Positions 3,499-16,491 of a stretch of 21,976 nucleotides of DNA are shown here, one piece after another; position 1 is the first letter of the stretch, and every line of letters begins with the position of its first letter. Under the pieces are notes generated by a model, which did not search any database, was not told the DNA's origin, and was given only the letters and a program-made list of their open reading frames with translations. Origin of the DNA: a virus; the IMG/VR virus record IMGVR_UViG_3300022401_000130. One strand, written 5' to 3'. A program made the translations under genes and the position numbers.

Positions 3499-4431
3499 CT
3501 ATGCTCTGAATTGTCCTTTGATTATTCTATTAGGTGCGTTCATTAACACACCGACGGAGGAAAGTATGAATAGTTTTGTATACATAGGCAATTCGTCACG
3601 TATGTCTTTGCGCATGAATTCGATTAATGGATAGAAATCGTACATTTCACCGTCAGGTCCTAAAGGTGCAACGGTTGTTCCTGTAGTCCTGGAGTATAAC
3701 AATTTCATTCCTGGGTTAATGTAGTCCATACCAATATATGTTTTGTCACCCATCTCAGAACCACCATCACAAACTGCAGTTCCAAGGATATCTATATTAT
3801 CAACGCCGTAATAGCTTTTGATTAATTCTACCGGTTCAACTTGTCTGTTACTTGAGAATATGTCAGATTTTAATGTAGTAAGAGATTTGTAACTAACAGC
3901 CATACTGTTTAAGTTAGCATAACTTCCGGCACCTTCTTTGAATTTTTCCTGTGCTTTAAGGATGGTCATACCGGTATCGTCACCAGATTCAAAGTCATAG
4001 GTGGTTACTTTGGATGAATTCATTATCATATCAATAGCTGCCTTTTCAATACTTCTACCAATAAGGATACCTACATCCTGTAACATGTCATTAACACTTA
4101 TTAAATTGGAATCAAGCATTTGAGCAGAAACGTTTAATACTCCACCGATAGTGTCAATGGAGACGGTTTCGCTGATTGGTTTTCTGACGTTTAATTCCTG
4201 TAATGTTGCGCCAGGTGCAATGTCTTTTGCCTCTCCAAGCACGCCTGCCTGAATAGCTTCCTCGATATTGACTCTTTGTGACATGTAGGTATAGTATTGA
4301 GAATTCTCTTGTATTTCTTGCTTTGGAAGTAATCTGGTGAATTTCATCCATTTGGCTGAAGTGTCAGCTACAATCTGTGCCATTACTTCATTTTGTACTT
4401 TAGCATCATTTCCTTTTGTTAACATTAACAT
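3499..4431 (-). CDS. Major capsid protein paralogue B (HK97 fold); likely start at ATG 4425 (MLTKGN)
   Basis: 310 aa; E-loop/spine-helix pattern (DIAPGATLQELNVRKPISETVSIDTIGGVLNVS...DMLQDVGILIGRSIE) typical of HK97-fold shells; roughly half identical by eye to 4442-5380; GGTGA RBS. Confidence 0.8.
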   Translation of the reverse strand: MLMLTKGNDAKVQNEVMAQIVADTSAKWMKFTRLLPKQEIQENSQYYTYMSQRVNIEEAIQAGVLGEAKDIAPGATLQELNVRKPISETVSIDTIGGVLNVSAQMLDSNLISVNDMLQDVGILIGRSIEKAAIDMIMNSSKVTTYDFESGDDTGMTILKAQEKFKEGAGSYANLNSMAVSYKSLTTLKSDIFSSNRQVEPVELIKSYYGVDNIDILGTAVCDGGSEMGDKTYIGMDYINPGMKLLYSRTTGTTVAPLGPDGEMYDFYPLIEFMRKDIRDELPMYTKLFILSSVGVLMNAPNRIIKGQFRA

Positions 4432-4441
4432 TCACCTCTAA

Positions 4442-5380
4442 TTATGGTCTGCAGGTACCTCTTAAAGCAAGTCCTGGTTTATTTAATAATATTCCTACTT
4501 TTGATTGTATAAATAATTTGGTATATTGAGGTAACTCATCGTAAATGTCTTTACGCATGATTTCAATGATAGGATAGAAGTCTGCAATGTTTTCATCACT
4601 TGTAATTGGTGCAACAGTAGTTCCGGATGATTTGGAGTACAATACTGTTAACGGTGCATTACGAAGATCAAAACCGATATAGTCCTTATCGCCTATTAAT
4701 GATCCACCGTCAGCTTGAGTTGTTCCGAGAAGGTCAATGTTGTCAATGCCGTAGTATTCTTTAATGTCTTCTACTGGCTGTACCATTTTGTTGGATGCGT
4801 AAGCTAATTGTTTAACATAGCTTAATGTCTTGTATGATTCGGCCATTATTGTTAGGTCTGCACCTGCACCGGCGTTGCCTTTGAATGCTTCCTGTGCTTT
4901 GATGACAAATTTACCGAAGGCATCCATGGTATCGTCAGTTTCACTGGTATTGTAAACAGGAACGTTTGGAGAGCTTGTTATAGTATCGTAAATGTTGTAT
5001 TCAATACGATTAGCAATAACGGTAGCTACATCACCTAATAAATCCTCAAATGAAACAATATCTGAGTCAAATACATCCTTATTAACATTTAAGACTCCAC
5101 CAACAGTATCAATACTAATAGTGTCTGTTACTGGTTTGCGGATGTTAAGTTCCTGAAGTGATGCGCCTGGTGCAATGTCTTTGGCCTCACCAAGGAGACC
5201 TTTTTTAATAGCTTCGTCAAGATTAATGTTCTGTCTGAAATAAGTATAGTAATCTGAGTTCTCTTTAATTTCTTGTTTAGGAAACAATCTAGCTAACTTT
5301 AATCTCTTTGCGGTTTCATCAGTAATAGTTTGAGCTATTACCTCGTTTTGAACTTTAGTATTATTTCCTTTTGTAATCAT
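4442..5380 (-). CDS. Major capsid protein paralogue A (HK97 fold)
   Basis: 312 aa; same HK97-like pattern (DIAPGASLQELNIRKPVTDTISIDTVGGVLNVN...DLLGDVATVIANRIE); directly follows a decoration-like gene; GGTGA RBS. Confidence 0.8.
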   Translation of the reverse strand: MITKGNNTKVQNEVIAQTITDETAKRLKLARLFPKQEIKENSDYYTYFRQNINLDEAIKKGLLGEAKDIAPGASLQELNIRKPVTDTISIDTVGGVLNVNKDVFDSDIVSFEDLLGDVATVIANRIEYNIYDTITSSPNVPVYNTSETDDTMDAFGKFVIKAQEAFKGNAGAGADLTIMAESYKTLSYVKQLAYASNKMVQPVEDIKEYYGIDNIDLLGTTQADGGSLIGDKDYIGFDLRNAPLTVLYSKSSGTTVAPITSDENIADFYPIIEIMRKDIYDELPQYTKLFIQSKVGILLNKPGLALRGTCRP

Positions 5381-5390
5381 TCATTATCAC

Positions 5391-5873
5391 CTATTCTGTT
5401 ATGTCATAAGGTCTGAATACTTCAACGTAATTGTAATCATCAGAACTATCAACTGGATGCATTGCAATATACTCACCGTCATTAGATTTAATAGCTCCAG
5501 TGCTTGATAAAGCTATACGGTCATTAACGGCAATGTTTGATAATCCACTAGCTAATTTTAATCTGAATAAATGTCCTAATACAAGAATAGCTGTTTTCCT
5601 TTTACCGCCAGTCATAGTGACCGGATCGTTAACAGCAATACCTAAAATGATTTCACCTTCAGCTGCAGTGTATTTTTTAACTGTTGGTTTTCCAATATCT
5701 GAGTTTGCAGATAAAGTTACAGCATCATCCACTTTGATTTTATCTCCTGCGTATTCATATCCAGGAGTTTCTCCAGTTGGAGTAGTAACAGTGGTAGGTG
5801 TAATCTCACCTTCATCTAATAAGAAAGTTGTGACTTCTTTTCTTTCTTCAAGTAAAATAATAGAATCTGCCAT
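5391..5873 (-). CDS. Capsid decoration/cement protein (beta-tulip/DUF2190-like), paralogue 1
   Basis: 160 aa, immediately upstream of the MCP (canonical position); IGIAVND..., VLG.LFRLKL beta-rich pattern; GGAGG RBS. Confidence 0.7.
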   Translation of the reverse strand: MADSIILLEERKEVTTFLLDEGEITPTTVTTPTGETPGYEYAGDKIKVDDAVTLSANSDIGKPTVKKYTAAEGEIILGIAVNDPVTMTGGKRKTAILVLGHLFRLKLASGLSNIAVNDRIALSSTGAIKSNDGEYIAMHPVDSSDDYNYVEVFRPYDITE

Positions 5874-5897
5874 TATTAATGTCCTCCAATAATTGCT

Positions 5898-5928
5898 ATT
5901 ACTTAATTTATTATTTATATTATATAAA
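5898..5928 (-). promoter_or_regulatory. Conserved structural-gene promoter copy 1: TTTATATAA-N5-RTAATAAA
   Basis: Minus strand TTTATATAA TATAA ATAATAAA TTAAGTAAT; same motif and spacing at 15693-15723, 17685-17714 and 20311-20342. Confidence 0.75.
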
Positions 5929-5970
5929 CATCTCTATATAATGGCTACTTTTTGAAATGATATCTGAAGA

Positions 5971-6000
5971 TTGACATTAACATTAACGATTGACATTAAC
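5971..6000. repeat. AACATT-iteron site upstream of the capsid promoter
   Basis: TTGACATTAACATTAACGATTG (5971-5992) is identical to 17737-17758 and is followed by a further ACATTAAC. Confidence 0.75.
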
Positions 6001-6058
6001 GGTTGAAAAATAGAATGGCTATTTAATATTGCTTTGTTAATATAAACTAAAGGATAGA

Positions 6059-6126
6059 ATAGAAATAAGTCAAGAATAAGAATTGTTAAGGATGAATTCG
6101 TGAAATATAAGATGACTTATTTCTAT
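6059..6126. repeat. 14-bp perfect inverted repeat with a 40-nt spacer
   Basis: ATAGAAATAAGTCA (6059-6072) and TGACTTATTTCTAT (6113-6126). Confidence 0.7.
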
Positions 6127-6202
6127 GGAAAACAACATAGGAGTTAAATTGTCTTCAATATAATATTAGTTAGTTATGTTATATAATTGAAGGGTTCTGG
6201 AA

Positions 6203-6916
6203 TCATTTATCCAAATCTTCTTTTAATATCTCATACATTACTTTCTTTATGTCTTTAGTGGAACGTAAAACAAATTGAGGGTTTGCAATTTTAATAACTC
6301 TTCCTTTATCATTATAAACAAAATTATTTCTATCTTGTCTATTACAAGAATCACACTGCGGAATTATATTTCCTAATTCTAATGATTTATTAGGATCCTT
6401 ATGGCCTTTTTGTAATTGTGTTGTAATATTTGGATAATGAATGTTTGGTTCACCTTCAATAGAACCACAAGTAGCACATCTATAATTATATTGCTTTTTA
6501 ATTGATTCCCATTCATCTCCAGTTAAGTTATCTAATCTTCTTAAATTAGTAAAGTTAGGATAATATTTTTCGACACTGATTAATGCATACTCTCCAGGTT
6601 TCACATTGTATTCAGCACATTCCCTATCATGTCTTTGACCACTTATGATATACCAGCCTTTCTGTTGTCCTAAATGTCTTGCTTGTTGGACATCATTAGG
6701 TCTTTCACCATATTGGCCTAAGAAATTAGTTAAATCTTCTTTTGACACAGGTTTTTGAAAGTTAAGATATAAATAAATTAATACTAATGCATCTTTTGTA
6801 TAGTTGTCTCCTGTTTTTAGTCTAGGAAATTTAACTCCATATTTTTCTAAATATTTCGCATGTTTTTCTTTTAATTCTGTATAACACTCCATTAATTTTG
6901 AATCACTCACATACAT
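6203..6916 (-). CDS. HNH (His-Me finger) endonuclease, probable restriction endonuclease
   Basis: 237 aa; RCATCG...QKGHKDP...QCDSCN zinc-binding HNH motif preceded by a helical N-terminal domain; adjacent to a C5 methyltransferase. Confidence 0.8.
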   Translation of the reverse strand: MYVSDSKLMECYTELKEKHAKYLEKYGVKFPRLKTGDNYTKDALVLIYLYLNFQKPVSKEDLTNFLGQYGERPNDVQQARHLGQQKGWYIISGQRHDRECAEYNVKPGEYALISVEKYYPNFTNLRRLDNLTGDEWESIKKQYNYRCATCGSIEGEPNIHYPNITTQLQKGHKDPNKSLELGNIIPQCDSCNRQDRNNFVYNDKGRVIKIANPQFVLRSTKDIKKVMYEILKEDLDK

Positions 6917-7251: not shown

Positions 7252-8415
7252 TTAATTCAAATTATCTAATGATCTTCTAAATTCTGAAGCAATAGCTTTT
7301 GCTAGTAATGGAGGTACTGCATTACCTACTTGTTTATATTGTTGACTACTTGACCCTTTAAATTCCACATAATCTGGTATGGATTGTAATCTGCAAGCTT
7401 CTCTTACACTCATGACTCTATTGCTTGTTGGATGTAAAAATCTGCCTGGAGCACTAGCACAACCACAATTACCAGTAATTGTATCGGCAGGTTTATTTTC
7501 ATCTAATTTACCATATATATTTGGATAACCTCTTTTAAGTTTTAAATCATCAGGTAAGTCTCCATGATTACCTCCTTGAGGAATATTTTTAATTCTTTCA
7601 ATAACTAATTCAGAATGATTAGGTGCTTTATGATTAAATAATTTATCAGAATTTTTTCTACAATATTCTTGATATTCATTTTGAGGAGGAAGAGTATATT
7701 TTGTGGCTGATTGTTTACATTCAATTATTGGTAAATCAGATAAAGCATCTTTAACAGTTAAATAATGTTTTGCATCACCTGAATGAGCTAATAATGAATT
7801 TTTGTCATGATGAGTAGGAGTAGGGAATTTAAAATTATAATCATATTCTTTTCTAATACCTACAAAGAATATCCTTTTTCTTAATTGTGGAACACCATAA
7901 TCTGCAGCTAACAATACTTTTGATTGAACATTATAACCAATGTCATTAAAGATATCAATAAGCTCATCTTTAATTAATTCATCTTTACCGTTTTTCATAG
8001 ATGCTAATCCTGAAACATTTTCCATCAAAAACATTTTAGGTTTAATTGAATCAACAATATCTGCATAAATTCTAACAAGATTGTTTCTTGGATCATCAAT
8101 CATTCGATTTCCAACAGTACTAAATCCTTGACATGGTGGCCCACCTATGACAACATCAATTTCATTTGGATTAATGTTATTCTCTTTTAAAAGTGTGATA
8201 ACATCAGTTTCATTTAAATCTTCATTAAATCCAATTGCATTGGGATGTGAATTAGTATATGTCTCTAAAAATTTAGGTTCAATTTCAAATCCTGCTAAAA
8301 TATTGAAATCTTCCATCTCAAAACCTAAACTTAATCCACCAGCCCCACAAAACAAATCTATACAGTTATATTTATTTTCATTAGCACACATTTCAAAATC
8401 ATCCTTATTAACCAT
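7252..8415 (-). CDS. dcm: DNA (cytosine-5)-methyltransferase
   Basis: Motif I DLFCGAGG, catalytic GGPPCQGFS, ENV, QLRKRIFFVG, and C-terminal SVREACRLQS and QVGNAVPP motifs all present. Confidence 0.95.
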   Translation of the reverse strand: MVNKDDFEMCANENKYNCIDLFCGAGGLSLGFEMEDFNILAGFEIEPKFLETYTNSHPNAIGFNEDLNETDVITLLKENNINPNEIDVVIGGPPCQGFSTVGNRMIDDPRNNLVRIYADIVDSIKPKMFLMENVSGLASMKNGKDELIKDELIDIFNDIGYNVQSKVLLAADYGVPQLRKRIFFVGIRKEYDYNFKFPTPTHHDKNSLLAHSGDAKHYLTVKDALSDLPIIECKQSATKYTLPPQNEYQEYCRKNSDKLFNHKAPNHSELVIERIKNIPQGGNHGDLPDDLKLKRGYPNIYGKLDENKPADTITGNCGCASAPGRFLHPTSNRVMSVREACRLQSIPDYVEFKGSSSQQYKQVGNAVPPLLAKAIASEFRRSLDNLN

Positions 8416-9587: not shown

Positions 9588-10769
<1,182 letters not shown>

Positions 10770-10773
10770 TATT

Positions 10774-11796
10774 TTATTCCTCCTCATGTGTCCATGGTTC
10801 AATACTTATTCTTTCCCATTGAATGTGGCCTCCTGCTTCATAAATCATTATTGCAGGATAGAATGTATCAAATGTTATCTTATCTGAAATATCAGCTTCA
10901 TATGTGAAATCATCTGTAGCTCCATGTGTTATTGTAGCTTTAACATAACCGTTATCATAATACAAATCAAAATAATACTTCTGCGAATCCAATGCCAGCT
11001 GTCCTGATGAAACATTAACATCCCGTACTACATGGTCAGATGTGGAATATTTCAGTCCTTTCTTAGCAGGATAAGCACCCAGTTCCAGAATTTTTGTATC
11101 TCTGTAATGGCTTAATGATTTGGAATTGACTAAAGCTATTGCATCGCCCCATCCCTGGTTACTGTCCTTTTTCTGATAGATAGCCACTTCCATATGAATT
11201 CCGCTTGTCCCGTCAATACCGTTAGAGTATACCCCAGGTATTGCCATTACTACAGAAGCTGCTACAGTATCTTTTGCCAAATCATAAACCTCACTATCAT
11301 CTACCATATCAATATCAAATGTGGGTGATATGCTTGTTGGATACTTAACAATTTCATAAGCCCCTAAATTTCCATCCCATGCATAATCATCGAAATTTAA
11401 AAATGGAACGCATGTATAATTAATGTTAAAGGCTTCTTTTCTTCCAACTTTGCAGATGACAGTTCCTGTAGCATCTTTAACATATGGTACTGTAACGGCT
11501 GACTTTCCGTTAGAATCTGTTCTGACAACACTGTGAACTCCATCAACCCACCAGTCAATTGGAACTCCTGAATCTTCAAGTGTTACGCTGTATTCAAATC
11601 CTTCCGGAGGAACTGTATCTGATTTTACAATACGCAATACGGGGATTCCAAACATCATCATTAACCGTTCTGCAAGTTCAAATATTGTGAGAGTATTGTC
11701 CCACCAGATGTTATATTCAGTCAGCTTATTTCTAAGCTTTGTTCTTGTATTTCCAAGCCTTGTGTTTTCCAAAATAACATTACTAGCTATGCTCAT
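10774..11796 (-). CDS. Putative adhesin/receptor-binding protein (N-terminal helical anchor, Ig-like domain, beta-sandwich); likely start ATG 11796
   Basis: GTGAGG RBS before MSIASN; N-terminus aligns with that of 11807-12667; VRTDSNGKSAVTV is a Big_1/invasin-like Ig motif; aromatic beta-rich C-terminus. Confidence 0.6.
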   Translation of the reverse strand: MSIASNVILENTRLGNTRTKLRNKLTEYNIWWDNTLTIFELAERLMMMFGIPVLRIVKSDTVPPEGFEYSVTLEDSGVPIDWWVDGVHSVVRTDSNGKSAVTVPYVKDATGTVICKVGRKEAFNINYTCVPFLNFDDYAWDGNLGAYEIVKYPTSISPTFDIDMVDDSEVYDLAKDTVAASVVMAIPGVYSNGIDGTSGIHMEVAIYQKKDSNQGWGDAIALVNSKSLSHYRDTKILELGAYPAKKGLKYSTSDHVVRDVNVSSGQLALDSQKYYFDLYYDNGYVKATITHGATDDFTYEADISDKITFDTFYPAIMIYEAGGHIQWERISIEPWTHEEE

Positions 11797-11806
11797 CTTT
11801 AACGCC

Positions 11807-12667
11807 TCACAGTTCCGGTTCATAATATATTTTTGTATCTTTTGTATTGCATATGGTGTGGGAGTCTGATTTGTAGCCATCACTGCCATATGCTCCAAAT
11901 ACTATCTCATCGGAATTCCATACATCTCCCGGATCAAAAGTTCCTGAAATTAAGACATTATCGTTTGAATCCTTGAATATGTATTGCAGATAATAGTCAT
12001 CTGTTTTTTTAAGAATTATTGTTCCTTCAGCAAATGGATGATTGTTATCACGTACTGAGTCATTTGCAACCCCCCATCCATTGTCCAGTGAAAAGACTCC
12101 AGGATATCCACCGACAGAACCTATGAATACTCCAGTATAACCGTCGGGATTATAATCTCTAATCAGTCCAGAACTTTCATGGTTTTCATCTACAAGGAAT
12201 CCAATTCCCATTAATCCGTTCCATCCTCCGGATATGTTAAATTGTGATTCAATTCTCCATCCGTCATTATCTCCATAATAGTATGTTCCGGGAGTAGTGA
12301 CAAATTTACCGAAAGTTGCAGTGTAATACCAGCCGTCCTCTTCAAACTGATCTTGAGTATCATCATTTGTATATGATACACAATAGTTTCCATTGTTGGC
12401 ACTTGACCATGATGCAGCACTGATATTAGCCATCTTATACAAGGTTGATAGTTTTCCTGCGGTCTGGGGATTAACATTAACGTCCGTTTGAAATATCGGA
12501 AGAATTTCATACCTGTCTATTAATTGATTAATGCTATCTGTCTGACTATAACTGATTCCGGCATTTGTCAGCCCTGTTCTCAGATTAGTTCTTAAGGTTG
12601 TTAATCTGGAATTCATTAGCTGTTCATTAGCCAGAACTTGTGAAAGGTCAGGAGGGGTGAAACTCAT
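11807..12667 (-). CDS. Putative adhesin/lectin-like (ConA-like beta-sandwich) virion protein
   Basis: 286 aa; N-terminal RL..LRT.LR..LT...I helix shared with the downstream gene; G/D/N/W/Y-rich beta C-terminal domain. Confidence 0.55.
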   Translation of the reverse strand: MSFTPPDLSQVLANEQLMNSRLTTLRTNLRTGLTNAGISYSQTDSINQLIDRYEILPIFQTDVNVNPQTAGKLSTLYKMANISAASWSSANNGNYCVSYTNDDTQDQFEEDGWYYTATFGKFVTTPGTYYYGDNDGWRIESQFNISGGWNGLMGIGFLVDENHESSGLIRDYNPDGYTGVFIGSVGGYPGVFSLDNGWGVANDSVRDNNHPFAEGTIILKKTDDYYLQYIFKDSNDNVLISGTFDPGDVWNSDEIVFGAYGSDGYKSDSHTICNTKDTKIYYEPEL

Positions 12668-12672
12668 CTTAA

Positions 12673-13545
12673 TCAGCTCCCGAGCAAATTCAAGTTTGCT
12701 GTTTGTGTGGATGTTATTGTTCCAATAGCTGTTTGGACATTTTCAATAGCTATAGCTACCGGTGCGTTTTTAATAGCGTTGGTTGTATCGGTTGTATCTA
12801 AAGTGCTTGCAAGATTAACAGGGCCGGTATCACCAGTATCTCCTTTATCACCTTTAGGTCCGGCAGGGCCAATATCACCAGTATCTCCTTTATCACCTTT
12901 AGGTCCGGCAGGGCCAGTATCACCAGTATCTCCTTTCAGACCACTCACCCCAGTATCTCCTTTTTCACCGGATGCACCAGTATCTCCTTTAGGTCCTTTC
13001 AAATTAAAATATTGGTCAACTAATGCTTTACCATCACTTATACATGCAATATGACATATATTATTATCAGTTCTTGTGAGTACCCAGTCTCCAAGATTTA
13101 CTTCTGTTGCCCATGCATTATTTTCCAATAAATCACTGACATAAAATCCTCCATATAATGAAGGTTGAGCCGGACAGCCTGTTGAAGATAAACTGCTGTT
13201 TCTGCCACTGATGGACAGTAATATTTGTGCTCCGGCTTTACCTGCAGGACCAGTTTCACCAGTGTCTCCGTGAATACCTGTTGCTCCGGACATGTCTGTT
13301 ATGAATGTGAATTCGGATGTTCCTCTGAGATATAATTTAGCGTTATCGGGATCTTCAACATTAGATTGGATTGCAACAAAACTTCCATCAGGAACATTAT
13401 TGAAATCAGCTTCCATTAATGCTATTGTTGAATATGTTTTAAAAATTGTGAATGGTGCGCCTGCAGGACCTGTTTCACCAGTAGCTCCTTGAGGTCCTGT
13501 TGCTCCTATATCACCTCTTAAGTTTCCAACATTTCTCCAGGTCAT
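12673..13545 (-). CDS. Collagen-like fibre protein
   Basis: Three Gly-X-Y tracts separated by non-collagen domains (PFTIFKTYSTIALMEADF...DPDNAKLYLRG...ITDMSG, a known phage collagen-associated type); C-terminal coiled neck-like segment. Confidence 0.9.
   Translation of the reverse strand: MTWRNVGNLRGDIGATGPQGATGETGPAGAPFTIFKTYSTIALMEADFNNVPDGSFVAIQSNVEDPDNAKLYLRGTSEFTFITDMSGATGIHGDTGETGPAGKAGAQILLSISGRNSSLSSTGCPAQPSLYGGFYVSDLLENNAWATEVNLGDWVLTRTDNNICHIACISDGKALVDQYFNLKGPKGDTGASGEKGDTGVSGLKGDTGDTGPAGPKGDKGDTGDIGPAGPKGDKGDTGDTGPVNLASTLDTTDTTNAIKNAPVAIAIENVQTAIGTITSTQTANLNLLGS
12828..12936. repeat. 45-bp tandem repeat (2.4 copies) in the collagen tract
   Basis: TATCACCAGTATCTCCTTTATCACCTTTAGGTCCGGCAGGGCCA at 12828 and 12873, partial copy at 12918; 12905-12936 is identical to 13670-13701. 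Confidence 0.85.
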
Positions 13546-13548
13546 TTA

Positions 13549-14187
13549 TTATTCCTCCCATACATAAAGTTCGCCGTTAATTAAGTAAGCATCTCCCACT
13601 TGAGGATTTGGAACGTTCTCTTCCAATTCTTCCAGACTATCATATGAGCCTTTTATTATTGTTGATATTCCGGCAGGGCCAGTATCACCAGTATCTCCTT
13701 TCTCTCCTTTAGCACCGCCACCTGCTAATTTAAAACAGTTAATGTAATTGTATTCATCAGAATCTTCCACAGGATGTAATGCCAAGTATTCACCTGATGA
13801 ATCTTTAACGGCTCCGTTTTCACCTAGCTTGATTTTATCGGCCGGTGCAATATCTTTAACACCACTGGCCAGTTTAAGTCTGAATAGCTGGCCTAACACT
13901 AACACACTGGCTTTTCTTTGGCCGTTATCCATTACTGTCGGGTCATTAACGATTATGCCTATTGGTATTTCATCATTATCTCCAGTGTATTTTTTAACCA
14001 TTTCTTTTCCGATTTCGGATTTGTCTGAAATGGTTACTGTATCTTCAGGATATAATTTGTCAGTGTAATCATAACCGATGCTTTGGCCTGTTTGTGTAAC
14101 TACGTCTTTTGAGGTTACATCTCCATCATCGAGTAAAAATGTTGTGACTTCTTTTCTTTGTTCAAGTAAAACTATTTGGTCTTGCAT
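13549..14187 (-). CDS. Capsid decoration paralogue 2 fused to a short collagen tract and half of a collagen-associated repeat
   Basis: First ~155 aa align closely with 5391-5873 (LLE.RKEVTTFLLD.G, VLG.LFRLKLASG, YLALHPVEDSDEYNY); then [16 protein letters not shown] and IIKGSYDSLEEL...GDAYLINGELYVWEE. Confidence 0.85.
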   Translation of the reverse strand: MQDQIVLLEQRKEVTTFLLDDGDVTSKDVVTQTGQSIGYDYTDKLYPEDTVTISDKSEIGKEMVKKYTGDNDEIPIGIIVNDPTVMDNGQRKASVLVLGQLFRLKLASGVKDIAPADKIKLGENGAVKDSSGEYLALHPVEDSDEYNYINCFKLAGGGAKGEKGDTGDTGPAGISTIIKGSYDSLEELEENVPNPQVGDAYLINGELYVWEE

Positions 14188-14786
14188 TAAACACTCACCT
14201 CATATATGTGATTGCCTTTTACATCTGGATTGCATTTGATTTCCATTCCGTGCTTTCTGGCTTCTGTGCAGAAATATAAGTCTTCTGATAGTATTGTGTC
14301 ATTATCATAGATTACGTATTTGAAATATGGGTATGGCATTTTCTTAAAGACATTAACATTAACGAGGCTGATTCCAAGTCCTCCTCCTTTAACGTCAATG
14401 GGATTGTTAAGGTTCCATAATGTTTTTCCATAGATCATGTTTTTGTCAGTGTAATCTTTTCCAAAATCATAGATGACGGTTTGATCTGTTTTTGTTCTTT
14501 TCTTGTAATACCAGCCTAAAGCAATATCTGTTTCACACTTTAACAGATTGTTTATAGTTTGTCTAGGCACACTAACGTCTGAATCTACCATTAACACATA
14601 GTCAAAGTCGTATTTGATTGCTAGCTTTGCTATTTCGTTTCGTGCACGTGCGCAGTCATAGCCTTTAACATAATCAAAATATAGTAGATAATCGTTAGGA
14701 TTTTTCATGCCGTAAATACTTTTAAAGCATTCCGGTTTGATGTTTTCGAATGTTGGAACGGCAATTAGGATTTTACCTTTCATCAT
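14187..14786 (-). CDS. GT-A fold (GT2-like) glycosyltransferase; likely start ATG 14786/14783
   Basis: KILIAVPT N-terminus, ARARNE, DxD motif VDSD, GGGLG and SEDLYFC motifs; GGAGG RBS; stop overlaps the next start (TAATG). Confidence 0.85.
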   Translation of the reverse strand: MMKGKILIAVPTFENIKPECFKSIYGMKNPNDYLLYFDYVKGYDCARARNEIAKLAIKYDFDYVLMVDSDVSVPRQTINNLLKCETDIALGWYYKKRTKTDQTVIYDFGKDYTDKNMIYGKTLWNLNNPIDVKGGGLGISLVNVNVFKKMPYPYFKYVIYDNDTILSEDLYFCTEARKHGMEIKCNPDVKGNHIYEVSV

Positions 14787-15054
14787 TGCCCTCCAGCTTT
14801 TCGATTCTCTCTTCCAGTTCATCCAAGTTTATCTTGTCTTGTTTTTCACATGTATATTCATAAATGTCAATTACTGCTACAATAACAATAGCTACTGTTA
14901 ATGGTAACAGTCCTTCGATTAAAGCATACTTTGTTGCGTTGGTCATTATGATGTTGATAGCTATTGCTGTTAAAACTGCACTGGAGATTGTTTTGGTAAA
15001 GTTACAAATGACTATTTTATTTTTTAGTTTGTTCATGATAACAATATCCTCCAA
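14773..15054 (-). CDS. Small two-TM membrane protein with C-terminal coiled coil (holin-like?); likely start ATG 15036
   Basis: Two hydrophobic segments (TISSAVLTAIAINIIM; ALIEGLLPLTVAIVIVAVI) and a charged LDELEERIEKLE tail. Confidence 0.6.
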   Translation of the reverse strand: MEDIVIMNKLKNKIVICNFTKTISSAVLTAIAINIIMTNATKYALIEGLLPLTVAIVIVAVIDIYEYTCEKQDKINLDELEERIEKLEGNDER

Positions 15055-15692: not shown

Positions 15693-15723
15693 ATTACTTA
15701 TTTTATTATTTTGTTTATATAAA
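15693..15723 (-). promoter_or_regulatory. Conserved structural-gene promoter copy 2
   Basis: TTTATATAA ACAAA ATAATAAA ATAAGTAAT; its TATA box overlaps the TAA stop of 15715-16491. Confidence 0.7.
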
Positions 15724-16491
15724 GTATACATTTTCGCCATCATCACAACCGTCCCATTCCATGTATAACTTATTGTCTTCCCAAACAAACCGTACATTAT
15801 TAACAATAGCTACATCCGGAAGCTCACAATAAGTAACACCGTCTGCATCTTTAACATAATTGGCCTGCGCCATAATATTGGATTCCGTTGGTACGATCAT
15901 ATTAACAACATGAGTTATTTCATCCTGTTCAAAAGAACAGTCAGCAAGATCAATACAGTTCTGAGATTCTGGATACATTTCAATTTCAGACATCTGCCTG
16001 TATACTCTAATGTATTCAGTGTCTTCATTTTCCGTTAGATTAACAATGGAAAGTAATCTTAAATCATGGCCTTCAACCGGATTGCACTCACCGTCACTGT
16101 CAATGTAGATTCTGGTATTCGGCAATATATCTGCAGGAGCAGGTCTTTTGAGTTTTAATCTGAAAACATCACCCAGTACCGCAACAGTAACAAGAGTATG
16201 GCCGGATGATTTAACCTGCACCTTACCTAACAGATAACCGAAGGCCAGTTCACCAGCCTGTGCTTTTCTAACAATTGTATGCTGCATTGTGGATGATTCA
16301 TCAAGTGTTACCATCTCACCTACTGCACATTGGTTTTCACATATCCACGCCGTATGCTCATCATTAACGTAGAACCTTTCGCCCTCATCAAGTAAACAGG
16401 CAATAACGTCCATCTTTTCTTCATGTTCAAGTCCTGTTGGATATCCACGGCCATGTCCTATAGTACTGCCGTCATCATAGTCACTTATCAT
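15715..16491 (-). CDS. Divergent capsid decoration paralogue 3 with acidic C-terminal extension
   Basis: Conserved ACLLDEGE, VTVAVLGDVFRLKL and EYIRVYR segments match 5391-5873; about 90 extra C-terminal aa. Confidence 0.65.
   Translation of the reverse strand: MISDYDDGSTIGHGRGYPTGLEHEEKMDVIACLLDEGERFYVNDEHTAWICENQCAVGEMVTLDESSTMQHTIVRKAQAGELAFGYLLGKVQVKSSGHTLVTVAVLGDVFRLKLKRPAPADILPNTRIYIDSDGECNPVEGHDLRLLSIVNLTENEDTEYIRVYRQMSEIEMYPESQNCIDLADCSFEQDEITHVVNMIVPTESNIMAQANYVKDADGVTYCELPDVAIVNNVRFVWEDNKLYMEWDGCDDGENVYFI

Follow-up and report, generated by a model that had tools for sequence, protein, structure and literature searches.

Gene organization at the A-B junction

The stretch of DNA analyzed here, referred to as the window, comprises 21,976 nucleotides (nt) of IMG/VR record IMGVR_UViG_3300022401_000130, an element that is a virus integrated in rumen/gut methanogens. 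Two neighboring genes of the window, A and B, encode proteins with collagen-like Gly-X-Y repeats, and the boundary between them cuts through a small domain, the knob. The first part of the knob, termed the socket, closes protein A, and its last strand, termed the plug, opens protein B. The parts of the two genes are as follows.

13549-14187, minus strand: gene A, 212 amino acids (aa); residues 1-154 anchor domain, Gly-X-Y repeats at about 158-175, then the first part of the knob
13726-14187, minus strand: anchor domain in A, fused to collagen
13552-13662, minus strand: socket, consisting of knob strand 1, helix and the hairpin of strands 2-3 (A residues 176-212); ends ..LYVWEE
13554-13559, minus strand: GGGAGG ribosome-binding site of B, 8 nt before the ATG and within the last codons of A (W-E-E)
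13546-13551, minus strand: double stop TAA TAA, in the loop between knob strands 3 and 4; the same in independent assemblies
13543-13545, minus strand: ATG of gene B, directly after TAA TAA
13513-13545, minus strand: plug MTWRNVGNLRG, knob strand 4, matching W47-G55 of the intact domain, with Gly-X-Y directly after it
12673-13545, minus strand: gene B, 290 aa; the plug is followed by collagen, two globular inserts, more collagen and the C-terminus ...TITSTQTANLNLLGS

On the minus strand, the junction reads GAT GCT TAC TTA ATT AAC GGC GAA CTT TAT GTA TGG GAG GAA TAA TAA ATG ACC TGG AGA AAT GTT GGA AAC TTA AGA GGT. The 3′ end of gene A is ...GDAYLINGELYVWEE-TAA-TAA and the C-terminus of its protein ...IKGSYDSLEELEENVPNPQVGDAYLINGELYVWEE, while protein B starts with MTWRNVGNLRGDIGATGPQG, where MTWRNVGNLRG leads directly into the Gly-X-Y repeats. 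In the window the two genes share the same frame and are 6 nt apart. Four residues lie between the two tryptophans in the split form (EE+MT), and four in the intact form (NGTQ).

Searching for the knob motif ([KL]G.[YF]..-helix-..GD.Y[LIV]..G.LY.W....W..VG.IKG, with Gly-X-Y repeats on both sides) identified two intact copies in F, another fiber protein of the window, the first part of the motif in A and its last strand in B. PHROG matches to A cover residues 136-211, with expectation values (E) down to 4e-11. The Pfam Collagen family (PF01391) matches B with 54.1 bits and F with 90.6 bits at a cut-off of 27.2; A has only about six Gly-X-Y triplets and no Pfam collagen match on its own.

An earlier, sequence-only reading of this DNA had described a domain split across two in-frame genes by TAA-TAA, a GGGAGG ribosome-binding site at the break, and an unbroken form of the domain, present twice in the protein encoded at 9588-10769 (F), which itself begins with the second half. 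All of these features were confirmed. The letters at 13546-13551, which that reading had proposed to verify, show no difference in independent contigs: the junction is identical in contigs of two independent DNA studies, X1 (369 nt, depth 150, 0 differences) and X6 (2752 nt, 4 differences, none of them listed at the junction). At least 92% of the sampled words of 13250-13850 also occur in each of at least 15 public runs, which stem from a dozen studies. Contigs from RNA libraries cover parts of A and B; none of them bridges the junction with at least 31 letters on both sides, so that nothing can be said on co-transcription.

The intact knob domain and its predicted fold

The knob is a domain of about 45 aa, composed of a strand, a helix, a beta-hairpin and a further strand, and normally lies between two collagen stretches of one chain. 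Within the window this arrangement is found in F.

9588-10769, minus strand: fiber F, 393 aa, with a plug-like start, two intact knobs, collagen and a C-terminal tip
10521-10712, minus strand: intact knob 1 of F, used in the alignments
10167-10358, minus strand: intact knob 2 of F with its collagen flanks, the segment modelled

The intact knob of F was modelled with AlphaFold2 (AF2), using 21 diverse sequences that included IMG/VR contigs with a guanine-plus-cytosine (GC) content of 0.32-0.68. The last strand is part of the single compact fold that AF2 predicts, with predicted local distance difference test (pLDDT) values of 93-96 over residues 11-50, strands at residues 9-14, 31-35, 38-42 and 47-52, and a helix at residues 17-23. 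The boundary of genes A and B maps to the loop at 43-46 (NGTQ), before the last strand of the modelled knob. In the AF2 model of A, pLDDT values of 65-81 are reached only in the socket region, where a strand (178-182), a helix (185-191) and a hairpin (200-209) are predicted.

No conserved residue of the intact domain is lost in the split halves, despite 34-60% identity among the proteins. Sockets retain G49, D50, A51, L53, G56, E57, L58 and V60, and 19 plugs all share M1, W3, V6, G7 and G11. All plug proteins have a small residue (A, T, S, G or V) in second position. Methionine aminopeptidase removes the initial Met before a small second residue, and its removal is therefore expected in the plugs, leaving almost no overhang.

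Neither Pfam nor NCBIfam contains a model for the knob domain, and a sequence search of the PDB with A, F and a knob profile returned collagen only and nothing for the knob. The best structural match to the modelled knob is the N-terminal domain of Geobacillus virus E2 ORF18 (7chu_A, residues 3-68), with a Foldseek E of 0.014, a probability of 1.00, a TM-score (query) of 0.63 and a root-mean-square deviation of 1.3 Å over 51 columns; the VIA-align Z is 6.6 and the identity 19-20%. No paper on this ORF18 domain was found in the literature searched. Weaker fold matches are the trimerization domains of the multiplexin collagens XVIII (9bnb, Z 4.9) and XV (3n3f, Z 4.5), and also 3hsh, with 51-55 residues aligned at 6-13% identity and Z values below 8, which according to VIA-align may mean a common arrangement alone. 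These matches, modest in score, suggest that the knob could be a trimer-registering unit for the adjoining triple helices.

The cut is conserved in Methanobrevibacter relatives

We found 588 homologs of A, which by their database names sit in Methanobrevibacter. The 120 homologs listed include over 50 clusters, 206-227 aa in length and with 71-99% identity, that all end in ..GDAY[LI][IV].G.LY[VI]W[ER]E. The anchor domain is present in 45 of 103 Methanobrevibacter species genomes. All loci that combine the anchor domain, collagen and the first knob part stop at this very loop (26 of 26; open frames of 210-245 aa), and an uninterrupted A-knob-B gene was found in none of the 46 loci of the 103 species genomes. 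The relatives with the first knob part keep the split, a point that the sequence-only reading had left to comparison, and none is fused through the knob. In every locus inspected, the next gene begins by encoding the absent strand, M[TASV]W..[VA]G..[KR]G, and continues with Gly-X-Y repeats. The spacers between A and B are 0-36 nt long after the last stop (0 in the window), lie in different frames and carry GAGGTG where room allows. With 26 of 26 loci cut at the same loop and all conserved residues present in both halves, the pattern is far beyond chance.

A clade at 57-60% identity, which includes Caudoviricetes sp. vir323, has two cuts and accordingly three genes, A, B1 and B2. B1 (290 aa) carries an N-terminal plug as well as a C-terminal socket, ..GDAYLVDGELYV[FY]Q, and B2 (72-177 aa) an N-terminal plug. 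The spacer between B1 and B2 measures 81-94 nt and contains a conserved hairpin followed by a run of U residues (U7-9), with a folding free energy (dG) of -20 to -24 kcal/mol and z of -3.1 to -4.9. This element looks like a terminator or attenuator and could control how much tip protein is made relative to shaft protein. The hairpin, GGAAGU.C...G.ACUUCC, is located at L009:3031-3114, L001:7537-7630, L013:565-651 (minus strand) and L014:3040-3136, and its inner stem varies with the pairing kept.

First and second joints of the three-piece loci (L001, L009-L016, L042, L043) differ consistently. The first joint reads ..DAFLVDGELFVWH[NR]D at the end of one gene and M.W[TE]SVG.IKGPKG at the start of the next, the second ..DAYLV.GELYV[FY]Q and M.W[VI]NVG[NR][IV]KG[DE]TG. 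In the clade of the window, an acidic helix (LEELEENVPNPQV) occurs together with an Arg-rich plug (TWRNVGNLRG). Judged from the sequences, such differences may encode pairing specificity; inspection by eye revealed no obvious co-variation in the listed socket/plug pairs.

One-piece relatives unite A and B in one fiber

A one-piece protein of 266-388 aa that lacks the knob altogether is found at twenty loci of the genus. Its layout corresponds to A residues 1-173, collagen and the C-terminus of B, ..TDTTNAIKNAPVA.AIEN.QT.IGTITS.Q..NLNLLGS, so that the C-terminal end of B also closes the one-piece relatives. One-, two- and three-gene versions have the same first domain and the same ..LLGS tail. 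Since the one-piece relatives join the N-terminal domain of A via collagen to the end of B, A and B belong to one fiber. The tail ..IGTITS.Q..NLNLLGS is conserved at the C-terminus of B and of every one-piece fiber. Together with an N-terminal helix motif common to C and D, the two genes that follow B, it may provide a further, non-knob contact by which the chain goes on.

In a maximum-likelihood tree of the N-terminal domain, midpoint-rooted between the stand-alone paralogs and the fiber forms, the split forms are basal and the one-piece forms are nested among window-like split forms; at least two changes of state are forced by well-supported branches. We infer that in-frame recombination between Gly-X-Y repeats deleted the joint and so gave rise to the one-piece forms. 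Its loss in these forms suggests that the only task of the joint is to connect two segments.

Split and intact knobs in other viruses

Pattern scans of IMG/VR for gene starts of the form M.W..VG.IKG or MAW..[TVAI]GN[LI].G returned unrelated contigs with a GC content of 0.42-0.72, in which a gene ending in ..G.G.P....G..GD.Y.D..TG..Y.L. is closely followed by one that starts with a plug and Gly-X-Y repeats. With a stricter motif, 22 of 44 distinct plug plus Gly-X-Y starts have a socket-ending open reading frame (ORF) within -40 to +30 nt, as compared to a background of 2.3% socket-ending ORFs among the open frames of at least 80 aa in the same loci. Contig L047 carries a three-piece chain like that of the methanogen proviruses. 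Such chains are also encoded by cultured phages: in Nocardia phage NBR1, gp16 (..GDYYIDTSTGTIYRLGD) is followed by gp17 (MAWNVTGNIQGPQG ... GDMYLDTQTGDVYLLS) and gp18 (MAWDKVAAL..), and Corynebacterium phage EmiRose has the same chain in gp24, gp25 and gp26.

The knob is intact in 76 phage records, including Gordonia, Escherichia/Cronobacter/Enterobacter, crAss-like, Pseudomonas, Bifidobacterium and Bacteroides phages, and in 13 IMG/VR loci with a GC content of 0.32-0.68, where it was found by similarity to the intact form. As the domain is found both split and intact, both states are common.

A wider proposal, which we advance tentatively and as a single whole, is that the split knob is a standard interchangeable connector of archaeal and bacterial viruses that chains separately made collagen-fiber segments. 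The conserved junction would at the same time be a recombination point for the swapping of distal parts, and segments with both plug and socket (B1, NBR1 gp17, EmiRose gp25) could be added, duplicated or dropped, which would set fiber length. Assembly would be kept in order by the slight differences that consistently distinguish the first joint from the second.

The anchor domain and its paralogs

Besides the copy in A, the window encodes two paralogs of the anchor domain.

5391-5873, minus strand: stand-alone paralog of the A anchor domain, 160 aa, directly upstream of two HK97-type capsid genes
15715-16491: third, more distant anchor paralog, 258 aa

Residues 1-154 of A are 56% identical to the 5391-5873 protein (E 4e-62), and the capsid gene at 3499-4431 has a Pfam Phage_capsid_4 match. 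A stand-alone paralog beside capsid genes fits a role of A as a virion anchor. The fiber would be anchored on the virion, where the capsid is a more probable site of attachment than the neck. In GenBank, the A ortholog of vir323 is named 'preneck appendage protein'.

With 59 representatives among 1.84 billion proteins, the anchor family is small. When 20 of its members were scanned against Pfam, no cement/decoration family (PF09956, PF22758, PF23968) emerged, even at E 5, and the AF2 model of full-length A (pLDDT 42) is too poor to identify the anchor fold. Among the ESM Atlas feature neighbors of the 160-aa protein are clusters with phage cement families in 13-71% of their members and one cluster named 'capsid fiber protein', both of which are leads only. 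The sequence-only reading had collagen segments chained onto a decoration anchor. The chaining agrees with the unity of A and B in one fiber, and the paralog beside the capsid genes fits an anchor; a decoration fold was not recovered. The anchor domain occurs in up to 22 copies per host genome, which contain several proviruses.

Fiber F and protein D

F is preceded by a gene whose product ends in a conserved hairpin.

10774-11796, minus strand: protein D, 340 aa from MSIASNV, with the conserved C-terminal hairpin ..GGHIQWERISIEPWTHEEE directly before F

The start of F at ATG 10769 agrees with the start codons of its relatives. F residues 367-391 match PF24243 Phage_tail_C with 42.5 bits (cut-off 23.7), a match that belongs to F and not to A or B. 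D always ends in ..GGHIQ[WF]E...IEPWTHEEE, the next gene, F, starts with M.ETEWI.IGRV.GDTG, and the two are conserved together in 7 loci (window 10774-10833/10728-10769; L018, L020-L023, L001). The codons of the acidic tail of D double as ribosome-binding site (GAGGAGGA), as at the A-B joint. These conserved ends may represent a second joint, in which the C-terminus of D is a socket of another type and F the plug. An ESM Atlas search with D gave weak immunoglobulin-like (Ig-like) and laminin-G leads only.

In proviruses with a one-piece A-B fiber, and thus without an A-type socket, F keeps its plug directly after D, indicating that the F plug is independent of the A socket. Moreover, it is consistently unlike the plug of B (TWRNVGNLRG). 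The idea that two different fibers compete for the socket of A, put forward in the sequence-only reading, is not supported by these comparisons. Two loci complicate the picture: L043 has the F plug and lacks the D-type ..EPW ending, and L042 has an extra gene between D and F (5365-6528), in which the anchor domain is fused to an unrelated 387-aa protein.

A model for the joint and alternative explanations

The interaction of the halves was modelled with three copies of A(150-212) and three copies of B(1-32), each with an alignment. The interaction prediction score from aligned errors (ipSAE) was 0.50, 0.45 and 0.50 for A and B and 0.05, 0.00 and 0.00 for three controls, with a partner pLDDT of 74-75 and at least 96% of the contacts common between runs; the verdict of the tool was 'weak support'. 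The ipSAE mark is reached by 58 of 80 solved complexes and by 2 of 110 mismatched pairs; values up to 0.60 comprise only 7 of the 80 solved complexes together with both passing mismatches, and the A-B job is unlike the calibration set. The sequence-only reading had the first strand of the downstream protein complete the upstream domain in trans. The downstream protein indeed keeps exactly the missing strand, and physical complementation is weakly suggested by the model (ipSAE 0.50 as compared to 0.05).

We consider it likely that A and B are segments of one trimeric collagen-like virion fiber, joined non-covalently by the split knob domain via strand complementation. The end of A, with strand 1, helix and hairpin, would form the socket. 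B would start, probably after removal of Met, with the missing strand W..VG..[KR]G as the plug, which would run on into the B triple helix. We infer a 3:3 geometry, with one plug of a B trimer in each socket of an A trimer, whereby the fold would be restored and the fiber continued. The N-terminal domain of A would hold the fiber on the virion, probably on the capsid, and B would carry its distal end.

Several points weigh against this model. The sole interaction model of the two halves has the verdict 'weak support', with no contacts reported. The first half alone resembles the helix-plus-strand ending of many fiber proteins, as in PF24243 at the C-terminus of F, and might therefore stand alone. 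The F plug occurs in genomes without an A-type socket, so that a plug-like N-terminus is not always in need of this socket. Finally, the AF2 model of A (pLDDT 42) reveals no anchor fold, and no Pfam cement family matches the anchor domain.

In an alternative that we regard as unlikely, the two halves are separate: helix and hairpin of A would be a self-sufficient cap, the start of B a nucleation cap, and the two proteins would form independent, non-touching fibers. This would agree with the weak interaction model, with the helix-plus-strand endings that do close fiber proteins (PF24243, F C-terminus) and with the plug-like start of F in genomes that lack an A-type socket. However, the one-piece relatives link the A anchor domain to the C-terminal end of B, which without the joint has no recognizable anchor domain of its own. 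Moreover, genes that end with a socket and start with a plug are adjacent in that order in 22 of 44 cases against the background of 2.3%, and the cut runs through the sheet of the modelled intact fold.

The non-covalent A-B joint could also be extended by branching or alternative tips, if F or another plug protein docked in the A socket as well. This addition to the strand-complementation model appears doubtful. In the window, B and F both have plug-like N-termini while A alone has a canonical socket, in the three-piece clade three plugs face two sockets, and L043 combines an F plug with the lack of a D-type ..EPW ending, but the F plug is kept without the A socket and always beside the conserved hairpin of D, and its sequence consistently differs from that of the B plug.

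Far less probable is a single polypeptide, which would require that ribosomes read through or hop over TAA TAA or that the RNA is spliced there. The in-frame arrangement of the two genes at a distance of 6 nt would permit it in the window, but the spacers of the relatives measure 3-94 nt, fall into all three frames and contain several stops as well as a ribosome-binding site, and in other phages the gap reaches 110-400 nt. One joint has a terminator-like hairpin, the downstream genes have a ribosome-binding site and ATG of their own, and TAA is the stop of 14 of the 21 genes in the window. The conserved recurrent cut, the spacers of varied length and frame and the terminator-like hairpin lead us to exclude readthrough, frameshifting, decay and a recent nonsense mutation. 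This agrees with the earlier judgment that readthrough is unlikely and that the break is not decay, the same cut being present in 26 of 26 related loci with the conserved residues kept in both halves. A recent nonsense mutation, a pseudogene or an assembly error, suggested only by the bare look of a domain interrupted by stops, is hardly credible given the same junction in independent assemblies of different studies, the common position of the cut in all 26 related loci, the visible constraint on both halves and the basal position of the split forms in the tree.

Host, genomic context and neighboring genes

The closest phage record is vir323 (BK063679), a circular sequence of 34 kb from goat faeces with Methanobacteriales as host. 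The window has the same gene order, with portal, protease, several genes, glycosyltransferase, A, B and more fiber genes; elsewhere vir323 has two HK97-type capsid genes and a terminase, as in the window. Among the genomes compared, G001 is closest, with 87% of the sampled words common with the window. The following further genes flank the fiber genes or lie between them and the capsid genes.

14187-14822, minus strand: glycosyltransferase-like gene (phrog_1574, 3e-21; weak Anp1 and GT21 matches)
7252-8415 and 6203-6916: C-5 cytosine DNA methylase (Pfam 240 bits) and HNH/endonuclease VII-like gene, between the fiber module and the capsid genes

The stop of the glycosyltransferase-like gene overlaps the start of A (TAATG), and its position upstream of A is kept in relatives. 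As the fibers are rich in Gly-X-Thr, their glycosylation is plausible. Gene C (11807-12667) and gene D (10774-11796) have a common N-terminal helix motif, ..N.RL.T.R..LR..L..

Implications and comparison with known systems

If the halves bind, the joint provides a rule, readable from sequence, for fibers of phages and archaeal viruses that are assembled from several small genes. A gene ending in ..GD.Y....G.LY.. followed by one starting with M[ATS]W..[VT]G..[KR]G would then mark a physical joint, and many short 'hypothetical' or 'minor tail' proteins would be re-annotated as segments of one fiber. It would also explain the exchange of receptor-binding tips as cassettes, and would offer a small natural connector for the end-to-end joining of trimeric proteins. 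For viruses of methanogens, for which there are almost no experimental structural data, a directly testable fiber model is gained.

The closest counterparts are single-chain phage fiber and minor tail proteins (PHROGs 3904, 35286, 819, 15437), which have the same knob sequence and context. In these proteins the knob is one piece in one chain, whereas in A and B it is cut between strands 3 and 4 and distributed over two genes. In Geobacillus virus E2 ORF18, the structurally matching domain is likewise single and intact, at the start of a 517-aa protein. The trimerization domains of the multiplexin collagens XV and XVIII resemble the knob in that four strands and one helix lie directly beside a triple helix, but they are unsplit and have no sequence similarity to A and B.

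In chaperone-usher pili such as Fim and Pap, each subunit has an incomplete fold and receives the lacking strand from the N-terminus of its neighbor, resulting in non-covalent head-to-tail chains. A and B would follow the same principle by analogy, with the plug of B supplying the strand that the socket of A lacks. In contrast to pilins, which are Ig-like monomers, A and B would form trimeric collagen fibers with a small alpha/beta knob, and Pfam and PHROG scans of the neighboring genes revealed no chaperone or usher families. Since fold, oligomeric state and accessory proteins differ, the likeness to donor-strand systems is an analogy and does not imply membership.

Fibers built from several gene products are known from phage T4, where the separately encoded trimeric segments of the long tail fiber, gp34-gp35-gp36-gp37, are arranged end to end (PMC5537660). 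As proposed for A and B, the segments follow each other end to end and the receptor-binding part is distal. In contrast to A and B, the T4 fiber has specific protein-protein interfaces and a monomeric gp35 hinge, and involves neither collagen nor the split of a domain that is known to be intact elsewhere. With respect to the attachment site, the head fibers SPP1 gp12 and phi29 gp8.5 are trimeric, attached to the capsid via an anchor part and thought to aid cell adhesion (PMC7602432). The anchor domain of A likewise has a stand-alone paralog beside the capsid genes. These head fibers are single proteins, and the capsid location of A is putative.

A split joint of this kind was not described in the full-text literature searched, which does not cover most subscription journals and is no proof of absence; papers on the 80alpha baseplate and on phiTE have no bearing on it. 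In comparison with the systems above, the new element is the split inter-collagen knob used as a joint, which appears to be both widespread and undescribed.

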